Source: Vulcanimicrobiaceae bacterium
Lineage (GTDB): Bacteria; Vulcanimicrobiota; Vulcanimicrobiia; Vulcanimicrobiales; Vulcanimicrobiaceae
Assembly (NCBI GenBank): GCA_046262595.1
Contig: JBHEMM010000008.1
Coordinates: 43,438 to 57,260 of the forward strand
Length of the DNA: 13,823 bases
Direction: 5' to 3'
Made by a program: the position numbers and the translations under genes. Under the pieces are notes generated by a model. It saw nothing but the letters and a program-made list of their open reading frames with translations. It searched no databases and had not been told where the DNA came from. Of this stretch, positions 1 to 13,823 are shown piece after piece; the first letter of the stretch is position 1, and every line of letters starts with the position of its first letter.

Positions 1-1314
1 TTCGCCGCGCCCGCCGCTGCACAGTACTCCAACGAGTATTATCCGCCCAAGCTTGCGCACCAGGGCAAGACCGCGAAGCCGATCGCCGGTACCGGCAAAG
101 TGATCGTGCAGGTTCAGGTCAACGCCAACGGCTCGCATAAAGTGATCCGCGTGATCAAGTCGACGAACTCCGCCGACAACGCCGCGGCGCTCGACATTGC
201 GGGCAACTCTTCATACAAGCCCGCAACGCGCGGCAGCAAATCGGTGACGGCGTACTACGATTTTACGCTGAAGTTTACGGGGCGCACCGTCGCGAGCGCG
301 AACGCCGGGGGCGGTACGAGCAATTTTAAGGGCGTCGCCGGGCAAATCGATGGGATGATCCGTAAAGCGAATTACGCGGGTGCGAAAGCGCGCGCGCAAA
401 CGGCGCTTCAGTCGAACCCCGACGACCCGACGTTGAATTCCGAGCTCGGCGCTGCGAATTATTTCATGAACGATCTCCCCGCCGCGGCGGCCGCTTTTTC
501 CAAAGTGAGCAGCCTGAATCCAGAGTTCAAGCAGGTCGCCGCGAACGCGTACATGCAGGCGGCGACGAAGCTCGTTTCGTCCAATGCCTCACTGGCGCTC
601 GCCTACGCGCAGCGCGCGGTCGCGCTTTCTCCCGGCGGCGGCAGCTACTACGCTCTTGGCTCGGCCGAACTCGCTTCCGGTAATGCGGCACAAGCTGCTA
701 CCGATCTGAAGCGCGCGCGTGACGCCGTGTTCGGCGATCCGAAAGCGGATGTGAAATCGCGCGTCAACGTGGACGCGCAACTGTATGCCGCATACAATCA
801 AGCCGGCGAGACGGCGCAAGCAGCCGCGACCATGGACGAAGTCAAGAAGCTCGATCCGAACAATCCGGCGCTGAGCACGATTCAGGCCAACACGTACATC
901 GCTCAGGGTCAGGCGCTGCAAAAAGCGGGCAAATTCGACGAGGCCATCGCGGCGTTCTTGCAGGCGGCGGCGGTAAACAATCCCGCCGCGCAGGTCACAG
1001 GCAACCTTTCCGCGGCGTTTGCCTTGAGCTCGAAGCTCAGTCAAAAGGATGCAAAACCGACCGTTGCCGACTATAAAACGATGCAGGGCTACGCCGACAA
1101 AGCGCTCGCGCTGCGGCCCAGCGATCCGCAGGCAAACTTTGCCGAGGGCATCGCTTTGGCAGGCCAGTACTTGGTCGGCGGAAAGAGCGACGCATCGCTT
1201 AAAACCAGAGCGATGGCTGCGCTCAATAAGGCCAAATCGCAGGCGCAGTCCGCGGGCAATATGTCGCTGTCCATCGCCGTCGATAATTTCATCAAGCAGT
1301 CGCTGCCGCAATAA
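1..1314 (+). CDS. Exported protein with N-terminal TonB C-terminal-like domain and TPR repeats (5' end outside window)
   Basis: Frame is open from base 1 (FAAPAAA|QYSNEYYPPK..., resembling a signal-peptide cleavage site), so the track start at 100 is probably internal. GTGKVIVQVQVNANG...KSTNSADNAAALDIA...YKPATRG...YDFTLKF fits the TonB_C pattern. It is followed by Ala-rich TPR-like helices (ELGAANYF, YYALGSAEL, AGKFDEAIAAF). Confidence 0.8.
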   Translation, partial: FAAPAAAQYSNEYYPPKLAHQGKTAKPIAGTGKVIVQVQVNANGSHKVIRVIKSTNSADNAAALDIAGNSSYKPATRGSKSVTAYYDFTLKFTGRTVASANAGGGTSNFKGVAGQIDGMIRKANYAGAKARAQTALQSNPDDPTLNSELGAANYFMNDLPAAAAAFSKVSSLNPEFKQVAANAYMQAATKLVSSNASLALAYAQRAVALSPGGGSYYALGSAELASGNAAQAATDLKRARDAVFGDPKADVKSRVNVDAQLYAAYNQAGETAQAAATMDEVKKLDPNNPALSTIQANTYIAQGQALQKAGKFDEAIAAFLQAAAVNNPAAQVTGNLSAAFALSSKLSQKDAKPTVADYKTMQGYADKALALRPSDPQANFAEGIALAGQYLVGGKSDASLKTRAMAALNKAKSQAQSAGNMSLSIAVDNFIKQSLPQ

Positions 1315-1370
1315 GAGTGCCGGACGGCTCGTTACAAGGACTCTACGCAGAGGTGGACTAACCCGCCTCC

Positions 1371-1409
1371 ACGTACGGGGGGGTCGCCCCCGTCCGTTGT
1401 TTCTGTCTT
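1371..1409 (+). terminator. Possible intrinsic terminator/attenuator hairpin upstream of exbB
   Basis: ACGGGGG(1375-1381)-GGTCG-CCCCCGT(1387-1393), extendable by ACG/CGT, followed by the imperfect T-rich tail TGTTTCTGTCTT. Confidence 0.4.
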
Positions 1410-1452
1410 AGCGCACAATACGTTCCCGTAAAAATCGGAGGGGTCGAAAATA

Positions 1453-2112
1453 GTGTTTGGTGGTTTTATCTCATTCATGCAGGCGGGCGGCTGGGACATG
1501 TGGCTCCTCCTGCTCCTCTCGGTGGCCGGCCTTGCCGTCGTCATCGAACGGCTGATCTTTTTCTCGACGCAGCACGGCGATACCAAAGGCTTGCTGCGCG
1601 CTATCGGTCAGAAGATTGCGGCGAACGACATCGACGGTGCCGTCAAGGTCTGCCGCGGACAAAAGGGCATGCTGCCGCGCATTCTGGAGTTCGGGCTTCT
1701 TCGCGGTGAAAAGAACCGCGCGGACATCACGGACGCCCTCTCGATTGCGCTCATGGAGCACTTGAACGCGCTCGAGCGCTATCTGGGCATCATCGGCACG
1801 ATTGCCGTTATTGCGCCGTTCGTCGGCTTGTTCGGTACGGTGCTCGGCATCATCAAGGCCTTCAACGACATCGCGCTCAAGGGAAACTCCACGCCTGCGG
1901 TCGTCGCAGCAGGCGTGTCCGAAGCGCTCATCACTACCGCCACGGGTCTTATCATCGCGGTTATCGCCGTCGTGTTCTTCAACTATTTCAAGACGCGCAT
2001 CAAGGCGTACAACCAAGAGATGATCGTTGCAGCGAACCAGATGGCCGAGATGCTGCACTTCCACAATACGGGTTCGCCGATCCCCACCGACCTGTACCAA
2101 CCGGTCAAGTAA
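1453..2112 (+). CDS. exbB: MotA/TolQ/ExbB proton channel family protein
   Basis: Motifs LGIIGTIAVIAPFVGLFGTVLGIIKAF and VAAGVSEALITTATGLIIAV; N-terminal TM helix ending in IER; GGAGG upstream of the GTG start. exbB versus tolQ cannot be resolved strictly. Confidence 0.92.
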   Translation: MFGGFISFMQAGGWDMWLLLLLSVAGLAVVIERLIFFSTQHGDTKGLLRAIGQKIAANDIDGAVKVCRGQKGMLPRILEFGLLRGEKNRADITDALSIALMEHLNALERYLGIIGTIAVIAPFVGLFGTVLGIIKAFNDIALKGNSTPAVVAAGVSEALITTATGLIIAVIAVVFFNYFKTRIKAYNQEMIVAANQMAEMLHFHNTGSPIPTDLYQPVK

Positions 2113-2126
2113 GGAAGTAGGACCCG

Positions 2127-2537
2127 GTGAGTCTTCTTTCGGCGAAACAAGACGAAGAGGTGATGGCGGAGATCAACATCACGCCGTTCACCGACGTCTT
2201 GCTGGTGCTGCTCATCATCTTCATGATCTTAGCCGCGCTCGTTACGCCGCCCGGTTTCGAAAAAGAGCTGCCGAACAATAACAATTCGCAGCCGCAGAAT
2301 CAGAAGAAACACGACGACATCGAGATCGACGTCAACAATAAAGGCGTCATCTACGTGGATGGACAGAAAACCGATACGTCCGGCATCTACGGCGTCATGA
2401 TCACCGAACGTTCGAAAAAGGGCAACAAGCACGTCTCGATCGTCGCCGACGCCAAGGCGCCTTACGGCACCATCATCCGCATCCTCGATGCCGCGAAAGT
2501 CGCGGGCTTGGAAGACGTCGGCTTCGTTACGTCATAA
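2127..2537 (+). CDS. exbD: Biopolymer transport protein ExbD/TolR (copy 1)
   Basis: EINITPFTDVLLVLLIIFMI with the conserved membrane Asp; C-terminal ADAKAPYGTIIRILDAAKVAG. Confidence 0.92.
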   Translation: MSLLSAKQDEEVMAEINITPFTDVLLVLLIIFMILAALVTPPGFEKELPNNNNSQPQNQKKHDDIEIDVNNKGVIYVDGQKTDTSGIYGVMITERSKKGNKHVSIVADAKAPYGTIIRILDAAKVAGLEDVGFVTS

Positions 2538-2558
2538 GTGGAGGTTTTAATTTAATCC

Positions 2559-2972
2559 GTGGCCGTTTCAACTGGTCAAGGCGAAGAAGAAGTCATGTCG
2601 ACCATCAACATCACGCCGTTCACGGACGTGTTGCTGGTCCTGCTGATCATCTTCATCATTCTCGCTTCGGTTACTAAAGAGCCCCCGCTTCCGCTTGCGA
2701 AGAACAAAGACAAAGTCGTGGCTTCGCAGATCGTCGTGATGATCAACGACAAGAACGAAGTGTTGATCGGCGGTAACCCGACGCCGCTCGGGGACGCGAA
2801 ATCCGCGTTTGGAACGCTGCAAGAAAACACGGGTCACAAGTTCAAGAGCGTGATCATCAAGGCGGATCCGAAAGCGAACTACGGCACGATCCTGCAAGTC
2901 ATGGACGCCGCCAAGTCCAACGACCTCACGGAGTTTGGTCTGGCGAACAAGGTCGAGGGAAGCAAAACCTAA
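2559..2972 (+). CDS. exbD: Biopolymer transport protein ExbD/TolR (copy 2)
   Basis: TINITPFTDVLLVLLIIFII; KADPKANYGTILQVMDAAK; GGAGG upstream. Confidence 0.92.
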   Translation: MAVSTGQGEEEVMSTINITPFTDVLLVLLIIFIILASVTKEPPLPLAKNKDKVVASQIVVMINDKNEVLIGGNPTPLGDAKSAFGTLQENTGHKFKSVIIKADPKANYGTILQVMDAAKSNDLTEFGLANKVEGSKT

Positions 2973-2975
2973 ACG

Positions 2976-3719
2976 ATGCCTAACGCAGACAAATCCCCGT
3001 TCATCACCTCGGGCCACCGGTTCCGTAATTTTCTGGGCTGGGCGTTTCTTATCTCGCTTGCCGTGCACTTCGTTGCCGCGCCGTTCTTGAAGAACCTTAC
3101 GCAGCACTCGGAAGAACAGCAAGTCGAGAAAGTTTCGGTCACCAAGCGGATTATCGTGAAACCGCCGACGCCGCCGCCGCCCACGCCCACGCCGCCGCCG
3201 CCGAAGACGACGCCGCCGCCGAAGCAGCAGCAGCAGCAGCCGCAGCCGCAGCTCAAAGTGCAGCCGCCGAAGACGCAAAGCAACAATGCGTCGACGACGA
3301 GCACCGAGAGTAAGTACGTCGCGCCCAAGAGCGGCTCCGAGAACGGTGCTCCCGCGGGTCACGGAACCGCGCCGCCCGCTCCGGTCGCGAGCGTGGGTCC
3401 GCCGGCCAGTACGCCGACGCCCAAGCCGGCTTGCAAAACGCCGTATCAGGAGGCGACCGCCACGCAAACCGTCGCGCCCGAATATCCCGACTCGGCGCGC
3501 GAGCAGGGATTGGGACGCGTTGAAGTCGCCGTCGTCGTGACGGTGGGGGCATCCGGCTCACCCTCGAGTCCGACCATTCAAACGTCCTCGGGGAACATGG
3601 CGATGGATCAGGCTGCGAAGCAGGCAGCGATGCAATCGCAGTACGTCCCCAAAATCGTAAATTGCACACCCGTAGCGGAAAGCTACATCTTTCGCGTGAC
3701 GTTCGACCCCAACCAATAG
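2976..3719 (+). CDS. tonB: TonB-family energy transducer (copy 1)
   Basis: N-terminal TM with S-x3-H (ISLAVHF); Pro/Gln-rich spacer; C-terminal domain PEYPDSAREQGLGRVEVAVVVTVG...SSGNMAMDQAAKQAA...YIFRVTF. Confidence 0.85.
   Translation: MPNADKSPFITSGHRFRNFLGWAFLISLAVHFVAAPFLKNLTQHSEEQQVEKVSVTKRIIVKPPTPPPPTPTPPPPKTTPPPKQQQQQPQPQLKVQPPKTQSNNASTTSTESKYVAPKSGSENGAPAGHGTAPPAPVASVGPPASTPTPKPACKTPYQEATATQTVAPEYPDSAREQGLGRVEVAVVVTVGASGSPSSPTIQTSSGNMAMDQAAKQAAMQSQYVPKIVNCTPVAESYIFRVTFDPNQ
3162..3251 (+). repeat. In-frame low-complexity (CCG/ACG)n and (CAG)n triplet tracts encoding the TonB Pro/Gln spacer
   Basis: ccgccgacgccgccgccgcccacg... and cagcagcagcagcagccgcagccgcag encode PPTPPPPTPTPPPPKTTPPPKQQQQQPQPQ. 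Confidence 0.85.
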
Positions 3720-3739
3720 ACGCGGCTCGTGCCCTAAGC

Positions 3740-3775
3740 GGCAAAACGCTCACGAGAGGGGGCGTTTTGTCTTTG
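3740..3775 (+). terminator. Rho-independent terminator-like hairpin after the first tonB
   Basis: GGCAAAACGCTC (3740-3751) pairs with GGGCGTTTTGTC (3760-3771), 12 bp including G-U pairs, followed by TTTG. Confidence 0.65.
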
Positions 3776-3792
3776 TGTGAAGGCGCCCGGCA

Positions 3793-4431
3793 ATGAATCC
3801 GAAGCGCACGCGAAACGTGTTCCTCTGGGCGATCGCGCTCTCAATTCTCGTGCACTTCCTATTCGCGGGCTACATCCGGTGGCCGGTGACGATGCGTTCG
3901 TTCGAAGAGACGCGCATCGCGCGAATCCACATAACAACGATCGCGAGAGTGGTCCCGCACACGCCGCCGCCGCCGGCACCAGCGGCGAAGTCGAGCATCG
4001 CTCCGCCGAGCCTTGCCGCAAGAGGGCGCGGCCCGAAAGCCGCGATGCATAATGCGATCGGGCCCCTGCGCCTGCATACGCCGGCGCCCTCGCACACACC
4101 CACCCCGCTGCCGACGCCCGCATCGAGGCCCTCACTGGGCCCGTGCGGCGGCCATCAAAACACCGAACCCTCCGTGCAGGCCACGCCGGACGCGGTCGAC
4201 ATACCGCCCGACGCCCGCGCCAGCAAAGTCAGCGGCACGGCCCAGATTAGCGTTTCGCTCGATCCGCAAGGCCGCGTGACGGATACCGCGCTCGCGCAGT
4301 CCTCCGGCAACGCCGGTCTGGATACAGTTGCGGACCGTCTTGCCCGCGCGACGACCTACTCGCCCAAATACGTCAACTGCCGAGCCGTGGCCGGCCAGTT
4401 CGTCTTCAGCGTGAACTTTTCTGCGCTGTAG
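3793..4431 (+). CDS. tonB: TonB-family energy transducer (copy 2)
   Basis: TM with S-x3-H (LSILVHF); Pro-rich linker; TonB_C pattern IPPDARASKVSGTAQISVSLDPQGRV...SSGNAGLD...FVFSVNF. Confidence 0.82.
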   Translation: MNPKRTRNVFLWAIALSILVHFLFAGYIRWPVTMRSFEETRIARIHITTIARVVPHTPPPPAPAAKSSIAPPSLAARGRGPKAAMHNAIGPLRLHTPAPSHTPTPLPTPASRPSLGPCGGHQNTEPSVQATPDAVDIPPDARASKVSGTAQISVSLDPQGRVTDTALAQSSGNAGLDTVADRLARATTYSPKYVNCRAVAGQFVFSVNFSAL

Positions 4432-5755: not shown

Positions 5756-5955
5756 AGATACTTGCGGCGGTTTTAGGCATCGTGTTCATCGTGCTCGCGA
5801 TTCTGGCATGGAGCGGCATCGCTCATTTCTTACCGGCGTTAGGTCTCGACGGCAGACATCACACCAAACACGGCATCGTGTACCTCGTGCTCGCCGTCCT
5901 GTGCTTTGTGTGGGCGCGCATGTCCAGCGATACGGCGGTTACTTCGTCCCGATAA
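5752..5955 (+). CDS. Small two-TM membrane protein (67 aa) with a His-rich loop
   Basis: TTG start at 5752 overlaps the uppP stop (TTGA), with AGGAG at 5740-5744. MKILAAVLGIVFIVLAILAW...GRHHTKHG IVYLVLAVLCFVW gives two hydrophobic helices. The track start at 5692 is likely too early. Confidence 0.75.
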   Translation: MKILAAVLGIVFIVLAILAWSGIAHFLPALGLDGRHHTKHGIVYLVLAVLCFVWARMSSDTAVTSSR

Positions 5956-6853
5956 GGTACACTTCGTTCGGGTGCGGCGCGTAGATTTCGACGTTCGCGC
6001 GCGCATTGCGCACGTGCGGTTCGAATTCGCGCAAGCGCTGCTCGGTGGTCTGAACGATGACCACCGGGTAGCCTTGCGCGTTGGAGAGTACGCTCGCAAT
6101 CGCGCGCGCGTAGCCGTGTTCGTCGCTGCTGCGCGCACCGAATAACGAATCGCGGTACGCGTACTCGATGTTGTAATAGGGATTGCCCTGCCACCACGCT
6201 TCCCACATCCAAATGCGCGCATCGGCACTGCGGAACGAGTTGCGCGCCGGCGGACAAAGAAACAAGGCGTCCGCCTGCTGCGCCGCGATCGTCTGCAGCA
6301 CGTCGGATTGGCGCACGGTGTTGCGCCGGAGATTGCTGCCCACCCATTGATCGGTTTTGCGGATGTAATGCCAAGCCAGCTCGCTCGGCGGAACGTCCTG
6401 CATGTCGTCCGGATAGTGGGCTTTTTGCAGCCAATAGCAGAGGACGTTCCACAAACCGGCGATCGCGAGACCCGTTTGCCCGTCGCTGCGAAGGTTGTGC
6501 ACGTTGTCATGCCAAACGCCCAGATAAATGCACTGTTCTTCCGAGAAGAAGACGCCTTCCCACGCCTTGAACATGTCGACCGAATAAATCCGGCCGGGCA
6601 GCATCTCAACGATCTCGGCAACTTCGTTATCGCGCAGGATCGTGAAATCGTTTACCACCAGGCCTTCGCCCGCACGCACGAACCATTCCACCAAATCGCC
6701 GCCATGCACGGCGATGCCTTGGCGCTTGAAATAGTTCAGATGCGTGGGCAGCCCCATGAACGGATCGACGACGCTCGTGCAGTCGAACCGGCGCAAGATC
6801 TCTTCAATGCGCGAAGCGCAGATGCGGCGCGTGCGTTCGTGCAGTTCGATCAC
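5939..6853 (-). CDS. Dam/D12-class N6-adenine DNA methyltransferase homologue, probably catalytically altered or inactive
   Basis: Alpha-class motif order: SVVDPFMGLP...FKRQGIAVHGGD (motif I/II-like), and later D...ADALFLCPPA at the (D/N)PPY position. Confidence 0.62.
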   Translation of the reverse strand: MIELHERTRRICASRIEEILRRFDCTSVVDPFMGLPTHLNYFKRQGIAVHGGDLVEWFVRAGEGLVVNDFTILRDNEVAEIVEMLPGRIYSVDMFKAWEGVFFSEEQCIYLGVWHDNVHNLRSDGQTGLAIAGLWNVLCYWLQKAHYPDDMQDVPPSELAWHYIRKTDQWVGSNLRRNTVRQSDVLQTIAAQQADALFLCPPARNSFRSADARIWMWEAWWQGNPYYNIEYAYRDSLFGARSSDEHGYARAIASVLSNAQGYPVVIVQTTEQRLREFEPHVRNARANVEIYAPHPNEVYLIGTK

Positions 6854-8528: not shown

Positions 8529-9000
8529 AGCCGCGCTGATCGTTCTTTCGGACCGCGCCGCATCAGGTGCACGCGCCGACGGCTGCCTGCCCGTCATGCG
8601 CGAGCGATTGTCGAGCGTTTACGCCATCGATCGTGAAAGCGTCCTCGCCGACGACGCGGCTGCGCTGCAAGCGGAACTTATCGAGCTGTGCGATGCCGGC
8701 ACCGTCTCGGTGATTTTAACCAGCGGCGGCACGGGCCTCGGGCCGCGCGACCGCACGCCGCAGGCGACCGCCGCTATCGTGGATTACGAAGTGCCCGGAA
8801 TTGCTGAAGCGCTTCGTGCAGCCTCACTTGCGTTCACGAAAACGGCAATGCTTTCGCGCGGCATTGCCGGCGTGCGCCACCGTACGCTGATCGTCAATCT
8901 GCCCGGGAGCCCGAAGGCGGTGGGCGAGTGCCTCGATGTGCTCATACCGGTGCTTCCTCACGCTCTGGAACTGCTGGCTGGAGACGCTGCGGACGGATGA
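8518..9000 (+). CDS. mog: Molybdopterin adenylyltransferase (MogA/MoaB family)
   Basis: LSDR, TSGGTGLGPRDRTPQAT, PGIAEALR, AMLSRGIAG, IVNLPGSPKAV. Confidence 0.88.
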   Translation: MRFKAALIVLSDRAASGARADGCLPVMRERLSSVYAIDRESVLADDAAALQAELIELCDAGTVSVILTSGGTGLGPRDRTPQATAAIVDYEVPGIAEALRAASLAFTKTAMLSRGIAGVRHRTLIVNLPGSPKAVGECLDVLIPVLPHALELLAGDAADG

Positions 9001-10313
9001 ATTTCACGCAAGCGCAGTCCTATCTGTATGCGACGGTCAATGAAACAGCATCGCGCCGGGAACCGCACCGGCTTGACCGCATGCGCGCGTTCTTGCACGC
9101 ATTGGACGATCCGCAAAACACGTATCCGACGGTCCAGATTGGCGGCACCAGCGGAAAAGGCTCCACTTCCACGATGGCAGCCGCTGCGCTCACGGCTTGC
9201 GGAAAGCGCACCGGCCTGCATACGAAACCGCACATCCGCTCCATCACCGAACGCGCGCGCATCGACGCAGTGCCCATTCCGGAAGAACGCTTTGCGGAAC
9301 TGCTGAGCGACATGATGCCGGCGATCGGCACGGTCGAACGCGACCACTCACGACCTTCGTATTATGAAACGCTGCTCGCGCTCACGCTGCTGTATTTCGC
9401 GCGTGAGGGCGTGGATATCGCCGTGATTGAAGTCGGCATCGGCGGCAAGCTCGACGGCACGAACGTGCTGCGGCCCAACGTTTGCGCCATCACGAACGTC
9501 GGCTTGGATCACGTGGACGTACTGGGAGACACGATCGAAGAGATCGCGGCAGACAAAGCCGGCATCGCGAAAGCCGGCGTGCCGCTGGTGAGCGCCGTCG
9601 AACAGCCCGTCGCCCGTGAGATCATCGAACAAGCCTGCGCGGCGGCGGGCGCGCCGTTCGTTCCCGTGTTCGATCGAACGGAAGTTGCGGCGCGCACCGG
9701 CAGCGTTTACGGCCAGTCGTTCACGCTCACTACGCCCAGAGAAACGTATTCGATCGAACTGCCGTTGCTCGGCGCGTTTCAGCAGCGCAATGCAGCCACC
9801 GCCGTCACGGTGCTCGAAGAGCTCGGGCCGTTATATCCGGGAAAGGAAGCGATCGAACGCGGGCTAGCCGGCCTCACGCTGAGTGGGCGCATGGAATACT
9901 TTCCCTCGCATCCCGGCATCGTGTTCGACATCGCGCACAACCCCGACAAGGCCCATCATTTGGCGGACGCGCTGCGCGAAATTTTCCCCGGGCGCCATAT
10001 CACGTTCGTGATCGCTATCGGCGAGAGTAAGGACACTTCGGAGATACTGCTCGCGTTCGCCGGTTTGGGCGCGACGTTCATCTTCACGTCGTTCGAAGCG
10101 CACGGACGCAGCGCGGTCAAACCCCAGCGGCTGGCGAGCGTTGCGGAAAGTTTAGGGCTTTGGGGCCGTCCGACGCCGGATCCGGTTGAGGCGCTCGCCA
10201 TTGCGCGCCGGAACGCATCGGCGGACGGGATCGTCGTCGTGACCGGCTCGACGTACGTCGTGGCGGAGCTGCGTGCCTGGTGGATGGAACACGTTGCAGC
10301 TGCGCGGCCGTGA
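8997..10313 (+). CDS. folC: Bifunctional folylpolyglutamate synthase/dihydrofolate synthase
   Basis: P-loop GGTSGKGST, IEVGIGGKLDGTNV, GLDHVDVLGDTIEEIAADKAGI, DIAHNP, VVTGS. ATG 8997 overlaps the mog stop (ATGA). Confidence 0.92.
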   Translation: MNFTQAQSYLYATVNETASRREPHRLDRMRAFLHALDDPQNTYPTVQIGGTSGKGSTSTMAAAALTACGKRTGLHTKPHIRSITERARIDAVPIPEERFAELLSDMMPAIGTVERDHSRPSYYETLLALTLLYFAREGVDIAVIEVGIGGKLDGTNVLRPNVCAITNVGLDHVDVLGDTIEEIAADKAGIAKAGVPLVSAVEQPVAREIIEQACAAAGAPFVPVFDRTEVAARTGSVYGQSFTLTTPRETYSIELPLLGAFQQRNAATAVTVLEELGPLYPGKEAIERGLAGLTLSGRMEYFPSHPGIVFDIAHNPDKAHHLADALREIFPGRHITFVIAIGESKDTSEILLAFAGLGATFIFTSFEAHGRSAVKPQRLASVAESLGLWGRPTPDPVEALAIARRNASADGIVVVTGSTYVVAELRAWWMEHVAAARP

Positions 10314-11118
10314 CCTGCGCTGGGGCGAACGCACCTATGTCATGGGCATCGTCAACGTCACGCCGGATTCGTTTTCAGGCGACGGCATTGAAGAGGCGCA
10401 GGCGGCTGCCGCTTTCGCGGTAAGGCAAGCGCAGGGCGCCGATATCGTCGATATCGGGGCAGAATCCACGCGCCCAGGGCACGCGCCCGTGGACGAAGCG
10501 GCCGAGTTGCAGCGCCTGCTGCCGGTTCTTCGCGCGGTACGCGCGCAGCTTCCCGATGTTGTGATCTCCGTCGATACGCACAAGCCGGCGGTCTTTGAAG
10601 CGGCGCACGCGCACGGTGCGGACATTCTGAACTCGATTTGGGGCTTGCCCGAACCGTTGCTTGCGAGCGCGGCGCGCGCCGGCGTCCCGGTCGTCGTCAT
10701 GCACAATCAAACCGGCACGAGCTACGCCGGCCGCGTTATTGATGAAGTGAAGCGGTTTTTGCTCGAGGCTGCGCACCGCGCGCTTCACGCCGGAATTTCA
10801 CGCGAGCGGATCGTCCTGGATCCGGGCATCGGCTTCGGGAAAACGCCGGATCAGAACATCGAAGTGCTGCGCGATCTCCGGGCAATCACCGCACTCGGCT
10901 TTCCCACGTTGATAGGAACATCGCGCAAATCCACCATCGGCAAGCTCACGGGGAAGGCGCCGCCGCAGCGCGTCTTCGGCACGGCGGCGACCACGGCGTT
11001 GGCGGTAGCTGCAGGAATCGATATCGTGCGCGTCCATGATGTGGATGCCGCGCTGGACGCGGTGCACGTCAGCGATGCGATCGTTCGCAACTGGAGGCCG
11101 CAAGAATGGATGTCATAG
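10273..11118 (+). CDS. folP: Dihydropteroate synthase
   Basis: MGIVNVTPDSFS, DIGAESTRPG, ISVDT, LDPGIGFGKT, GTSRKS, IVRVHDV. Start is GTG 10273 or TTG 10294. Confidence 0.95.
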   Translation: MPGGWNTLQLRGRDLRWGERTYVMGIVNVTPDSFSGDGIEEAQAAAAFAVRQAQGADIVDIGAESTRPGHAPVDEAAELQRLLPVLRAVRAQLPDVVISVDTHKPAVFEAAHAHGADILNSIWGLPEPLLASAARAGVPVVVMHNQTGTSYAGRVIDEVKRFLLEAAHRALHAGISRERIVLDPGIGFGKTPDQNIEVLRDLRAITALGFPTLIGTSRKSTIGKLTGKAPPQRVFGTAATTALAVAAGIDIVRVHDVDAALDAVHVSDAIVRNWRPQEWMS

Positions 11119-11477
11119 AGCTCCGCGGCATGCGGGTCTACGGCAAGCACGGTGCAAACCCAGGCGAACGAGACCGGGAGCAGATTTTCGAGTTGAACGT
11201 GCGGCTGGAGCTCGACTTAGCGCAGGCCGCATCCGGTGATGAATTGCAGGCAACGCTCGACTATGCCGCCCTGCACGCGCGCATTAAAGCAACCGTCGAA
11301 TCGACCTCGTTCCGTCTGCTCGAACGGTTGGCATCCGAAGTGATGGGCGCAATCTTTGCCGACGCGCGCGTTGCTCGCGCCGGCGTGCGGATCGCAAAGC
11401 CGCAGCTGCTCGAGGGCGCGACGCCCAGCGTGCTGCTCCAGCGCGAAAACCCGCGCTACCGTGCCGCGTTTCCGTGA
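11106..11477 (+). CDS. folB: Dihydroneopterin aldolase
   Basis: YGKHGANPGER..Q.F, TLDYAAL, FRLLERLA, RIAKP; GGAGG at 11093-11097. Confidence 0.92.
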   Translation: MDVIELRGMRVYGKHGANPGERDREQIFELNVRLELDLAQAASGDELQATLDYAALHARIKATVESTSFRLLERLASEVMGAIFADARVARAGVRIAKPQLLEGATPSVLLQRENPRYRAAFP

Positions 11478-12352
11478 ACGCGACGCCGATCGCGGCAATC
11501 GGTCTCGGCTCGAACATGGGCGATCCGCGTGCGAATGTGAAGCGCGCCGTTTCGGCGCTCTCATCGGCGGGGCAGGTTCTCGCCGTCTCGCGCTTCTATC
11601 GCACGAAACCGTGGGGCGGCCCGCCCGGTCAGGCGGATTTCTGCAACGCAGCCGTTCTGCTGGAAACCCTGCTCGAACCGCTGGCTTTGCTCGCCGAACT
11701 CAAGCGCCTGGAGAGCGTGCTGGGCCGCGTGCCGTCGGAACGCTGGGGGCCGCGAGCTATTGATCTCGACATTCTGCTCTACGGCCGCGAGCGGATCGAC
11801 CACCCCGATTTATGCGTTCCGCATGCGCGCCTTTTCGAGCGGGCGTTCGCATTGGCGCCCCTTGCCGACCTCGATCCGCTCTTTGCAAGCGCATTCGCGG
11901 GGCTCGACCCGCAGGAGCGCGAATCGATAGCGCTCATGTCCGAGGACCCCCTGGTCGACCGTGTGCGCACGCTTGCGCAGGCGTTCTTAGAAACCGATTT
12001 GATGCGGTTGCGCATCGAAGAAGAGAACGAGGATGCCGTAGAGCTGCGCCGCAAGGCCGTTGCTGCGCCGCGGCGCGCTCCGCAGGACGATGAAGGCTCG
12101 AGCGGCTCGCCCGCGCCTGCGGCCGTAGCGGATCTCGTAAAGGCCGACCTGGTGGGCATCTTTCATTTGAGCCGGCCGCCCGTGCGCGATGGCGACGCGC
12201 TCGAGGGCGATCGCGAGCTGGCGTACGTGGAAGCGCTGGGCATCCGCAATCCCGTGCGTTCGCTCGGCGCGGGTCGGGTTCGTGCGGTGCGATGCAAGGA
12301 CGGCGATGCGGTCGAATACGGCCAAGTGCTCTTCGAGATCGACCGTGTTTAA
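11474..12352 (+). CDS. folK: HPPK (FolK) fused to a C-terminal BCCP/AccB-like domain lacking the biotinyl lysine
   Basis: Residues 1-~150: IGLGSNMGD, FCNAAV, ELKRLE..LGR, RWGPRAIDLDILL, VPH, ERAF. Residues 155-292: AccB-like N-terminal segment, Ala/Pro linker, VKADLVGIF, YVEALGIRNPV, DGDAVEYGQVLFEI. Confidence 0.88.
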   Translation: MNATPIAAIGLGSNMGDPRANVKRAVSALSSAGQVLAVSRFYRTKPWGGPPGQADFCNAAVLLETLLEPLALLAELKRLESVLGRVPSERWGPRAIDLDILLYGRERIDHPDLCVPHARLFERAFALAPLADLDPLFASAFAGLDPQERESIALMSEDPLVDRVRTLAQAFLETDLMRLRIEEENEDAVELRRKAVAAPRRAPQDDEGSSGSPAPAAVADLVKADLVGIFHLSRPPVRDGDALEGDRELAYVEALGIRNPVRSLGAGRVRAVRCKDGDAVEYGQVLFEIDRV

Positions 12353-13700
12353 AAAAGTGCTCATCGCGAACCGGGGCGAGATCGCCCTTCGCATTAACCG
12401 CGCGTGCCGCGAGCTCGGCGTTCAGACAGTGGCGATCTTCTCTGAAGCCGACCGGCTCTCGCTGCACGTGCGCCATGCAAGCCAAGCGTTTTGCGTAGGC
12501 CCGGGACCCGTTACGCGTTCATACTTGAACATTCCGAACATTATCTCGACCGCGCTGATCACGGGATGCGATGCCGTCCATCCCGGGTATGGATTTCTCG
12601 CTGAAAATGCGCGCTTCGCCGAGATCTGCGCGGACCACGGTTTGACGTTTATCGGTCCGCGCCCGGAAGTGATCGCGGCCATGGGCGATAAAGCGACGGC
12701 GAAGCGCGTCATGCGTGAAGCGGGTGTCGCCACCACGCCTGGAACCGACATTCTGCCCTCCGCGCAGGAAGCGCGGGCGGCCGCCGACACGATCGGGTAT
12801 CCGGTGCTCCTCAAGGCGACGGCCGGCGGCGGCGGCAAGGGCATGCGAGTCGTGCATGCGCCCGAAGAACTCGAGCGCGCGTATGCATCGGCGACGGCCG
12901 AAGCCGAAGCGAGCTTCAAAGACGGGCGCGTCTATATGGAAAAGCTCATCATTAAGCCGCGCCACATCGAAGTGCAAGTCTTGGGAGACCGTTTCGGAAA
13001 CGTCGTCCATTTAGGCGAGCGCGACTGTTCGGTGCAGAAGCCCTCACATCAAAAATTGATCGAAGAAGCGCCTGCGGCAAATCTTCCCGTGCCGGCGCGC
13101 GACGCGCTGCACGAGATGGCGGTGAAGGCGTGCAAAGCCGTGGGCTACAGCAACGCCGGCACGCTCGAGTTCTTGGTCAGCGGCGATCAAATCTACTTCA
13201 TGGAAATGAACACGCGCATTCAAGTCGAGCACCCGGTCACCGAGATGGTTTACGATATCGATTTGGTCAAAGAACAGATTCGCATCGCCGCGGGCGAGGC
13301 TCTGGGCTACGTTCAGGGTGACTTGAAGGCCTCGGGGCACGCGATCGAATGCCGGATCAACGCGGAAGATGCGCTCAACAACTTTGCTCCGGCTGCCGGT
13401 ACGCTGACGAACGTCGTCTTTCCCGGCGGCCCGGGCATCCGCGTGGATACGCACGTGTATTCCGGCGCGACCGTTCCGCCGTTCTACTATTCGATGATCG
13501 CAAAAATCATCGCCGTCGGCAGCACGCGCGATGCGGCAATCGCACGCATGGAACGCGGGCTTCGCGAGACCGTCGTCGAAGGCGTCAACACCACCATCGA
13601 TCAGTGTTTGGAAATTTTAGGCACCGCCGAATTCCGTTCGGGGCATTACTCGATCGATTTTCTTCCCGCGCTGCTCGAGAGCCGCGTGGGTGCAGTTTAG
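12345..13700 (+). CDS. accC: Biotin carboxylase subunit (AccC family)
   Basis: FKKVLIANRGEIA, HPGYGFLAEN, GGGGKGMR, EMNTRIQVEHPVTE, ECRINAED. The true start is GTG 12345, overlapping the upstream gene end. Confidence 0.93.
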   Translation: MFKKVLIANRGEIALRINRACRELGVQTVAIFSEADRLSLHVRHASQAFCVGPGPVTRSYLNIPNIISTALITGCDAVHPGYGFLAENARFAEICADHGLTFIGPRPEVIAAMGDKATAKRVMREAGVATTPGTDILPSAQEARAAADTIGYPVLLKATAGGGGKGMRVVHAPEELERAYASATAEAEASFKDGRVYMEKLIIKPRHIEVQVLGDRFGNVVHLGERDCSVQKPSHQKLIEEAPAANLPVPARDALHEMAVKACKAVGYSNAGTLEFLVSGDQIYFMEMNTRIQVEHPVTEMVYDIDLVKEQIRIAAGEALGYVQGDLKASGHAIECRINAEDALNNFAPAAGTLTNVVFPGGPGIRVDTHVYSGATVPPFYYSMIAKIIAVGSTRDAAIARMERGLRETVVEGVNTTIDQCLEILGTAEFRSGHYSIDFLPALLESRVGAV

Positions 13701-13709
13701 GAGACCCTC

Positions 13710-13823
13710 GTGCCGTCCCGCCGCATGGCCCGCGAACTCGCGCTTAAAGCGCTTTTTTCCGTCGAAGTTGGGCATCGCGATCCCGCCGAAGTTTTGGATG
13801 AATACCTGGCGACCCACTCCGAG
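13710..13823 (+). CDS. nusB: Transcription antitermination factor NusB (3' truncated by window; not in ORF track)
   Basis: AGGAG at 13699-13703, then GTG: MPSRRMARELALKALFSVEVG..., matching the NusB N-terminal RRxARE.A...LF motif. The accB-accC-nusB neighbourhood is also known. Confidence 0.82.
   Translation, partial: MPSRRMARELALKALFSVEVGHRDPAEVLDEYLATHSE

Follow-up and report, generated by a model that had tools for sequence, protein, structure and literature searches.

Why should an enzyme of folate biosynthesis be joined, in one reading frame, to an AccB-like module that lacks the biotin-accepting lysine, directly ahead of a biotin carboxylase gene? The question is raised by a stretch of 13,823 nucleotides (the window) from a Vulcanimicrobiaceae genome designated G000, in which a 292-residue frame without internal stop (11474..12352, +) places FolK in frame with the module. 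A preliminary description of the window proposed a scaffold or regulator that resembles the plant BADC proteins and tethers FolK to the carboxylase. The comparisons described here place the emphasis differently. The object of interest is likely the AccB paralogue itself, which is devoid of the acceptor lysine (Lys-less) across this phylum of soil bacteria and is a likely bacterial analogue of BADC; its recurrent fusion to FolK is most probably carried along as a passenger and does no harm because a predicted internal promoter exists.

The frame follows a folC–folP–folB run (8997..11477, +; Pfam Mur_ligase, Pterin_bind and FolB). Its HPPK (folK) part comprises 11474..11935 (+), with a GTG start that overlaps the folB stop, and passes the cut-offs of both TIGR01498 (126.9 bits versus 54.1) and PF01288 (Pfam HPPK; residues 9–135, 127.7 bits, cut-off 25.7). 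Residues 236–289 match Pfam Biotin_lipoyl (28.4 bits, cut-off 22.1). Translation and these matches bear out the uninterrupted FolK/AccB-like frame of the preliminary description, as well as its position directly before accC, the GTG of which (12345) is overlapped by the end of the frame by 8 nt. The accC gene (12345..13700, +) is followed by the start of a gene that we take, from sequence resemblance alone, to be nusB-like, and that is cut at the window end (13710..13823, +). All the motifs GxGSN, PWG, FxN, ExxxGR, WGPRxIDLD, PH and RxF are present in the HPPK part, presumably with the roles that they have in E. coli HPPK, and motif counts show the active-site motifs to be intact in fused genes. 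The structure model of the 292-residue protein (pLDDT of 88.6, pTM of 0.60) has two separate well-folded domains. Since folK has no stop codon, the fusion protein is likely the sole product of this gene. A second HPPK is present in the window genome, fused to an MptA/FolE2-type GTP cyclohydrolase (L263:2300-3727, at G000:C7:60299-61726, minus; TIGR00294 score of 255 versus 220, TIGR01498 score of 68.6 versus 54.1), and frames of about 500 residues resembling it occur in most relatives.

Two further observations concern the remainder of the window. A 304-residue ORF at 5939–6853 (−) has no Pfam or convincing PDB match; its words DPFMG and LCPPA may point to a DNA adenine methyltransferase in which the catalytic motif has degenerated. 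At 1–4431, judging from translations, a TPR protein with a TonB-like N-terminus, an ExbB/TolQ-like gene, two ExbD-like genes and two proline-rich TonB-like genes stand in a row, here in a lineage near Terrabacteria.

The Lys-less AccB-like protein comprises 138 residues when counted from Met155 (11936..12352, +). The profile of the C-terminal part aligns over the full length of E. coli AccB, including a homologous N-terminal domain, and the alignment puts EALGI (12230..12244, +) on EAMKM, with Gly256 (codon 12239–12241) replacing the acceptor lysine, as the preliminary description had stated. Its further claim of a full AccB module does not hold: about five residues are missing from its thumb loop in comparison with E. 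coli AccB, and the score against TIGR00531 (BCCP) is 37.3 bits, below the cut-off of 115.2. In the model, an N-terminal helix and two strands are connected by a low-confidence linker to a biotinyl-type barrel without a thumb, the best fold match of which is the E. coli biotinyl domain (PDB entry 1BDO, r.m.s.d. of 2.4 Å). The AccB-type N-terminal domain and the biotinyl-domain fold that characterize AccB/BCCP are therefore both found, and the acceptor lysine of the (E)AMKM hairpin is missing. Biotinylation at another lysine, which had been raised as an alternative, was rejected, as the other lysines lie off the hairpin and are variable (K69 is Arg in 11/80 sequences). Judged by its sequence, the module is unable to take biotin at the canonical site. 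The former lysine hairpin is nevertheless invariant and Arg-rich (R93 E94 L95 A96 ... L101 G102 R104 N105 P106 R108 in 80/80 sequences), a patch that is not kept in other classes of the phylum; Lys-less proteins of different classes share only 18–32% identity. Charge complementarity between the N-terminal domains of the Lys-less protein and AccB was not seen, both being slightly acidic. In databases, the Lys-less proteins are annotated as ordinary biotin carboxyl carrier proteins.

The window AccC passes TIGR00514 (633.4 versus 626.5), contains the motifs EMNTRIQVEH and RINAED, and is the only stand-alone one among three biotin carboxylases found in G000, two being fused alpha subunits. Because its operon partner has no acceptor lysine, a true AccB must serve it. 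Such a gene, which the preliminary description had expected elsewhere, is indeed present: a canonical accB (EAMKLF) lies 3′ of hisS on contig C11, and a canonical-type match at another site occurs in 59/61 genomes of the class. EAMKL(F/M) occurs in 29 of 30 such second-site loci that were read, and a hisS motif precedes the gene in 26 of these. In G000, which is 90% complete, accA is located at the end of a contig, and searches by motif or family did not detect accD. A deviant, biotin-independent AccC was considered and rejected, as the change of YDS to YYS is private to this assembly (1/91 loci) and the other motifs are intact. As a separate observation, AccC has a one-residue insertion, QKP(S/A/G/T)HQK versus QRRHQK, in 93/94 loci of the order (one frameshifted) and in the sister-order loci read; it is absent from other classes of the phylum. 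Just past the window (G000:C8:57261-57410), a gap of 10 N is followed by a repeat of the accC tail and nusB start with 76% protein identity, and the scaffold thus joins two different strains or species.

The Lys-less gene was found in 243/251 genomes of the order, including 184/186 high-quality ones. Distinct loci read number 163, comprising 146 from the order and 17 from the sister order; they are the best-scoring matches among those with listed coordinates, a choice that over-represents close kin of the window and biases the frequencies. Of the unpublished genomes, G022, G030, G023, G165 and G194 are represented by one locus each in the order counts and the tree, G048 and G059 enter the sister-order counts and G031 the tallies, and no conclusion hangs on any of them. 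The biotin-lysine site is Gly in all 144 readable loci of the order (two are unreadable). In the sister order, the context is EAL(R/K)(L/V), with Arg at the site in 9/17 loci and Lys in 8/17 (one read by eye). For the other classes, 24 accC loci were fetched, and the 23 readable upstream genes have S, G, N or R at the site and never K; an ordinary EAMK AccB is encoded in 15/16 of their second-site loci. In all loci read, accC is immediately preceded by the Lys-less gene, and this order is kept over the whole phylum sample while the genes upstream change freely. In a wider search for its range, a non-Lys residue occupies the site in 42 of the best 150 representatives, with 14 unread by the pattern; one Lys-less match, named Armatimonadota, may lie beyond the phylum. 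Separately, the query used retrieved no AccC at E ≤ 1e-120 from 16/41 genomes outside the class (families f4, f5 and most of f11). On the comparison of loci, the Lys-less gene is ancient and not a case of local decay.

The fusion has a different history. Among the 146 order loci, folK and the Lys-less gene are fused in 54, adjacent with an intervening stop in 39 and separated in 51, with two left unclassified; 90 of the 144 classifiable loci thus lack the fusion. No fusion was found in 40 loci outside the order (17/17 sister-order and 23/23 other-class loci are unfused). Of what the preliminary description asked of relatives, the loss of the lysine is thus conserved and the fusion is not. An assembly slip is ruled out by 54 distinct loci, and by two genomes of the same genus, in which the frame runs through this junction without a stop; two fused loci have a frameshift elsewhere in the ORF. 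A divergent gene frequently lies between folK and the Lys-less gene: in 38/50 separated loci, it encodes GAF and double HD domains (for example L079:2119-3915, minus), and a homologue is present in G000 on contig C22.

On a tree of AccC and the Lys-less protein (148/163 loci, 131 in-group tips; 15 loci with a short AccC or unknown state were dropped), the fusion state changes 14 times, compared with a mean of 40 after shuffling. Near-equal costs yield 7–9 gains and 5–7 losses, other costs 4–16 gains, on a tree in which several deep nodes are poorly supported. Several losses occurred through a stop just ahead of Met155. Fused junctions have 12 different lengths and share no linker sequence beyond the promoter-encoded residues, and no residue was found to track the fusion state, the best difference (0.42) being clade-linked. 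In-frame junctions number 54, against one locus in which folK continues out of frame past the internal start. Computed from the loci, out-of-frame run-ons would add a median of 21–34 junk residues and drop ribosomes before accC, so purifying selection can account for their scarcity. The in-frame excess does require selection; purifying selection can explain it, and a benefit of tethering may do so as well. Neighbouring junctions are never fused (folP–folB 0/110, folB–folK 0/115, Lys-less gene–accC 0/146).

An internal signal is common to all arrangements. Upstream of Met155 and its equivalents, CGAA precedes an ATG or GTG by 9–13 nt in fused, adjacent and separated loci alike. In the window, comparison of loci and with the SigH consensus yields a predicted −35 box, GGGG (11899..11902, +), and a predicted −10 box, CGAAT (11920..11924, +), 18 nt past the former and 12 nt ahead of Met155. 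The GG-N18-CGAA element falls into two different reading frames of folK, which points to a signal at the DNA level. Element and internal start occur together in 145/146 order loci, including 54/54 fused ones, a count inflated by picking the start with the requirement of a GAA 8–13 nt upstream; only the C before GAA (82–98% of loci) and the −35 GG at −21/−20 from GAA (79–92% of loci in every arrangement) are unbiased features. As a control, CGAA was found at equal distance before 152 of 3264 ATG or GTG triplets within accC. The −35 box varies from GGGG in G000, a partial match to the AGGA of SigH, to (A/C/G)GG(A/G) in the order and AGGC in the sister order, where AGG is present in 17/17 loci. 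The pattern used detected no such element in the 23 other-class loci. In separated loci, the divergent GAF/HD gene upstream (38/50) means that the Lys-less gene needs a promoter of its own, and the element persists where a divergent gene lies upstream. A SigH above the TIGR02859 cut-off is encoded in G000 and in 54/61 genomes, and SigH is strongly conserved in the class (58/61), so that AGGA- and GAAT-like boxes 17–18 nt apart coincide with a SigH gene in the same genome, consistent with a SigH-type promoter. No conserved Shine–Dalgarno sequence was found before Met155, and the distance of 9–13 nt from element to start codon would give a near-leaderless mRNA. Genome-wide enrichment of the element in G000 is modest, about threefold (10/694 likely starts versus 30/6452 inner ATGs; also 56/7709 versus 49/18842). 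Many genes of housekeeping appearance, which we take from their translations to be birA-, folD-, thyA-, argS-, aroQ- and acpS-like, also have the element 9–13 nt ahead of a plausible start (for example at C17:4257, C60:6710, C12:23509, C14:45163 and C7:61726), a pattern that points to a broad SigH regulon and to near-leaderless mRNAs in G000.

These boxes can be compared with published ones. The available part of PMC12456013 gives the SigH consensus as AGGA-N17/18-GAAT, and that of PMC7438776 lists C. difficile SigH promoters, internal ones included, as ending about 9–10 nt after GAA; if the last listed base is the start site, the leader here would be 0–4 nt. PMC5641562 yielded nothing on SigH. 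It is likely that the 138-residue protein is made on its own from the internal Met155 start. The separate polypeptide that the preliminary description had named as a counter-case is accordingly favoured, probably beside the fusion product, and of its proposal the BADC-like role is plausible, whereas tethering is not supported as the main purpose, as the fusion is labile and the internal start is kept in 54/54 fused loci.

These data are probably, if far from certainly, explained by a Lys-less AccB paralogue that helps to assemble acetyl-CoA carboxylase (ACC) as a non-catalytic, BADC-like subunit, with its own predicted SigH promoter inside folK, to which FolK has been joined by harmless stop loss. 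Transcription by SigH polymerase would begin a few bases ahead of Met155 and give a near-leaderless mRNA for the Lys-less protein and AccC. The N-terminal helix-strand domain of the Lys-less protein would pair with that of the true AccB and dock on AccC, and so promote assembly of the carboxylase with a carrier that is encoded elsewhere. The upstream fol transcript would give FolK with the module as a passenger. Loss of an intervening gene would bring folK up to the promoter, after which small deletions could remove its stop; of the stop-less junctions, only those in frame would survive, since ribosomes then run on to accC and FolK acquires no junk tail. With the free protein retaining its own start, loss of the folK stop would cost little, and this would explain why this junction fuses often and the others never. 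Read-through from FolK into the module is likely tolerated and not a purposeful tether. Against the assembly-subunit reading stand the in-frame bias and several origins of the fusion, which also fit positive selection, the lysine kept in 8/17 sister-order proteins, the modest enrichment of the promoter element, the failure of the pattern search to find it in other classes and the disagreement of plant papers over glue or inhibitor.

That the fusion is adaptive, the module tethering HPPK to the carboxylase complex and coupling pterin with fatty-acid metabolism, is unlikely. The case for it is formed by the 7–9 or so independent gains, the 54 in-frame junctions against one (chance expectation 1:2; binomial P of about 4e-4 for 9/10 events), the persistence over several genera in the window clade, the intact HPPK motifs and the restriction of fusion to this junction. 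It is weakened by the 5–7 or so losses, several through a stop just before Met155, by the 12 linker lengths without shared sequence, by an internal start that is never lost, by the prevalence of unfused loci (90/144, and all 40 outside the order) and by the absence of any residue tracking fusion. To our knowledge, moreover, HPPK and biotin carboxylase share no metabolite beyond ATP. A combined scenario, in which an obligatory carrier pair of one biotinylated protein and one convergent BADC exists in the whole phylum, the non-catalytic subunit was repeatedly selected, in several lineages, as a FolK docking tag and the internal SigH promoter supplies the free subunit, strikes us as doubtful to a very similar degree. 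The view that both the lysine loss and the fusion stem from misassembly or a locally decayed accB, an alternative recognized in the preliminary description, could appeal to the N gap and divergent accC-tail duplicate just past the window and to the private YYS of AccC, but it is refuted, and made extremely improbable, by dozens of independent assemblies that share both the junction and the Gly.

Rivals that concern the role of the Lys-less protein leave the fusion aside. It could be a negative regulator that fills carrier sites on AccC, or acts as a decoy for BirA or PII, and damps fatty-acid synthesis, with the fusion still a passenger; we consider this a possibility to be taken seriously, albeit the less probable role. 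In its first description BADC appeared as an inhibitor, and it also interacts with PII, according to the available parts of PMC12706156 and PMC11926652, and the invariant Arg-rich hairpin (80/80) suggests a binding surface, but that patch is not kept in other classes. A gene always before accC and present in 243/251 genomes has the pattern of a stoichiometric subunit, not of a separately controlled inhibitor, and because it is fixed beside accC and almost never missing, an assembly role is favoured. Very unlikely, in our judgement, is a paralogue that has left ACC for another partner or ligand and stands before accC by inherited gene order alone. The low identity between classes, the missing thumb loop and an invariant basic surface unlike that of BCCP would fit such a departure, but retention of the AccB-type N-terminal domain and of the order with accC, amid changing upstream genes, would not.

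If the assembly-subunit reading is true, a bacterial counterpart of BADC accompanies accC phylum-wide and a non-biotinylated carrier arose twice; with five genes, the locus would be a simple system for deciding whether BADC is glue or inhibitor. It also shows how an internal near-leaderless promoter allows neighbouring genes to fuse and separate again, so that function should be inferred from fusions with care.

Among known systems, bacterial AccB/BCCP (TIGR00531; PDB entries 1BDO and 4HR7) shares with the module the three-part layout, the fold and the place directly before accC. The module differs in having Gly for Lys, no thumb and a basic instead of an acidic hairpin, and the real AccB is encoded by a separate gene. 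With FolK/HPPK (TIGR01498), the frame shares a complete HPPK domain in a folC–folP–folB–folK run. Fusions of FolK/HPPK with other folate enzymes are known; they differ from the fusion described here, in which the partner is no folate enzyme. The predicted promoter shares with the SigH (Spo0H) promoters of Bacillota the −35 AGGA and −10 GAAT boxes with a 17–18-nt spacer, as given in the available part of PMC12456013, and with those of C. difficile their occurrence within genes (PMC7438776, likewise in part); it differs in being GC-shifted (GG...CGAA), in lying 9–13 nt from the start codon and in being predicted from sequence. Neither a bacterial BADC counterpart nor a FolK–BCCP fusion appeared in the titles and abstract openings of the literature searched, and the available part of PMC11926652 calls BADC unique to the plant enzyme. 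The same source describes BADC as a ‘glue’ that binds the N-terminal region of BCCP; an inhibitory or PII-linked role has also been published (PMC12706156, available part), glue versus inhibitor being disputed among the plant papers. Plant BADC1–3 are low-identity BCCP paralogues without the biotinylation motif that occur beside a true BCCP and one BC (PMC11926652 and PMC12706156, available parts), and in G000, too, a BCCP homologue without the motif coexists with a true BCCP. The protein described here differs in being bacterial, encoded in the accC operon and known from genes alone, and convergence with plant BADC is likelier than common descent.
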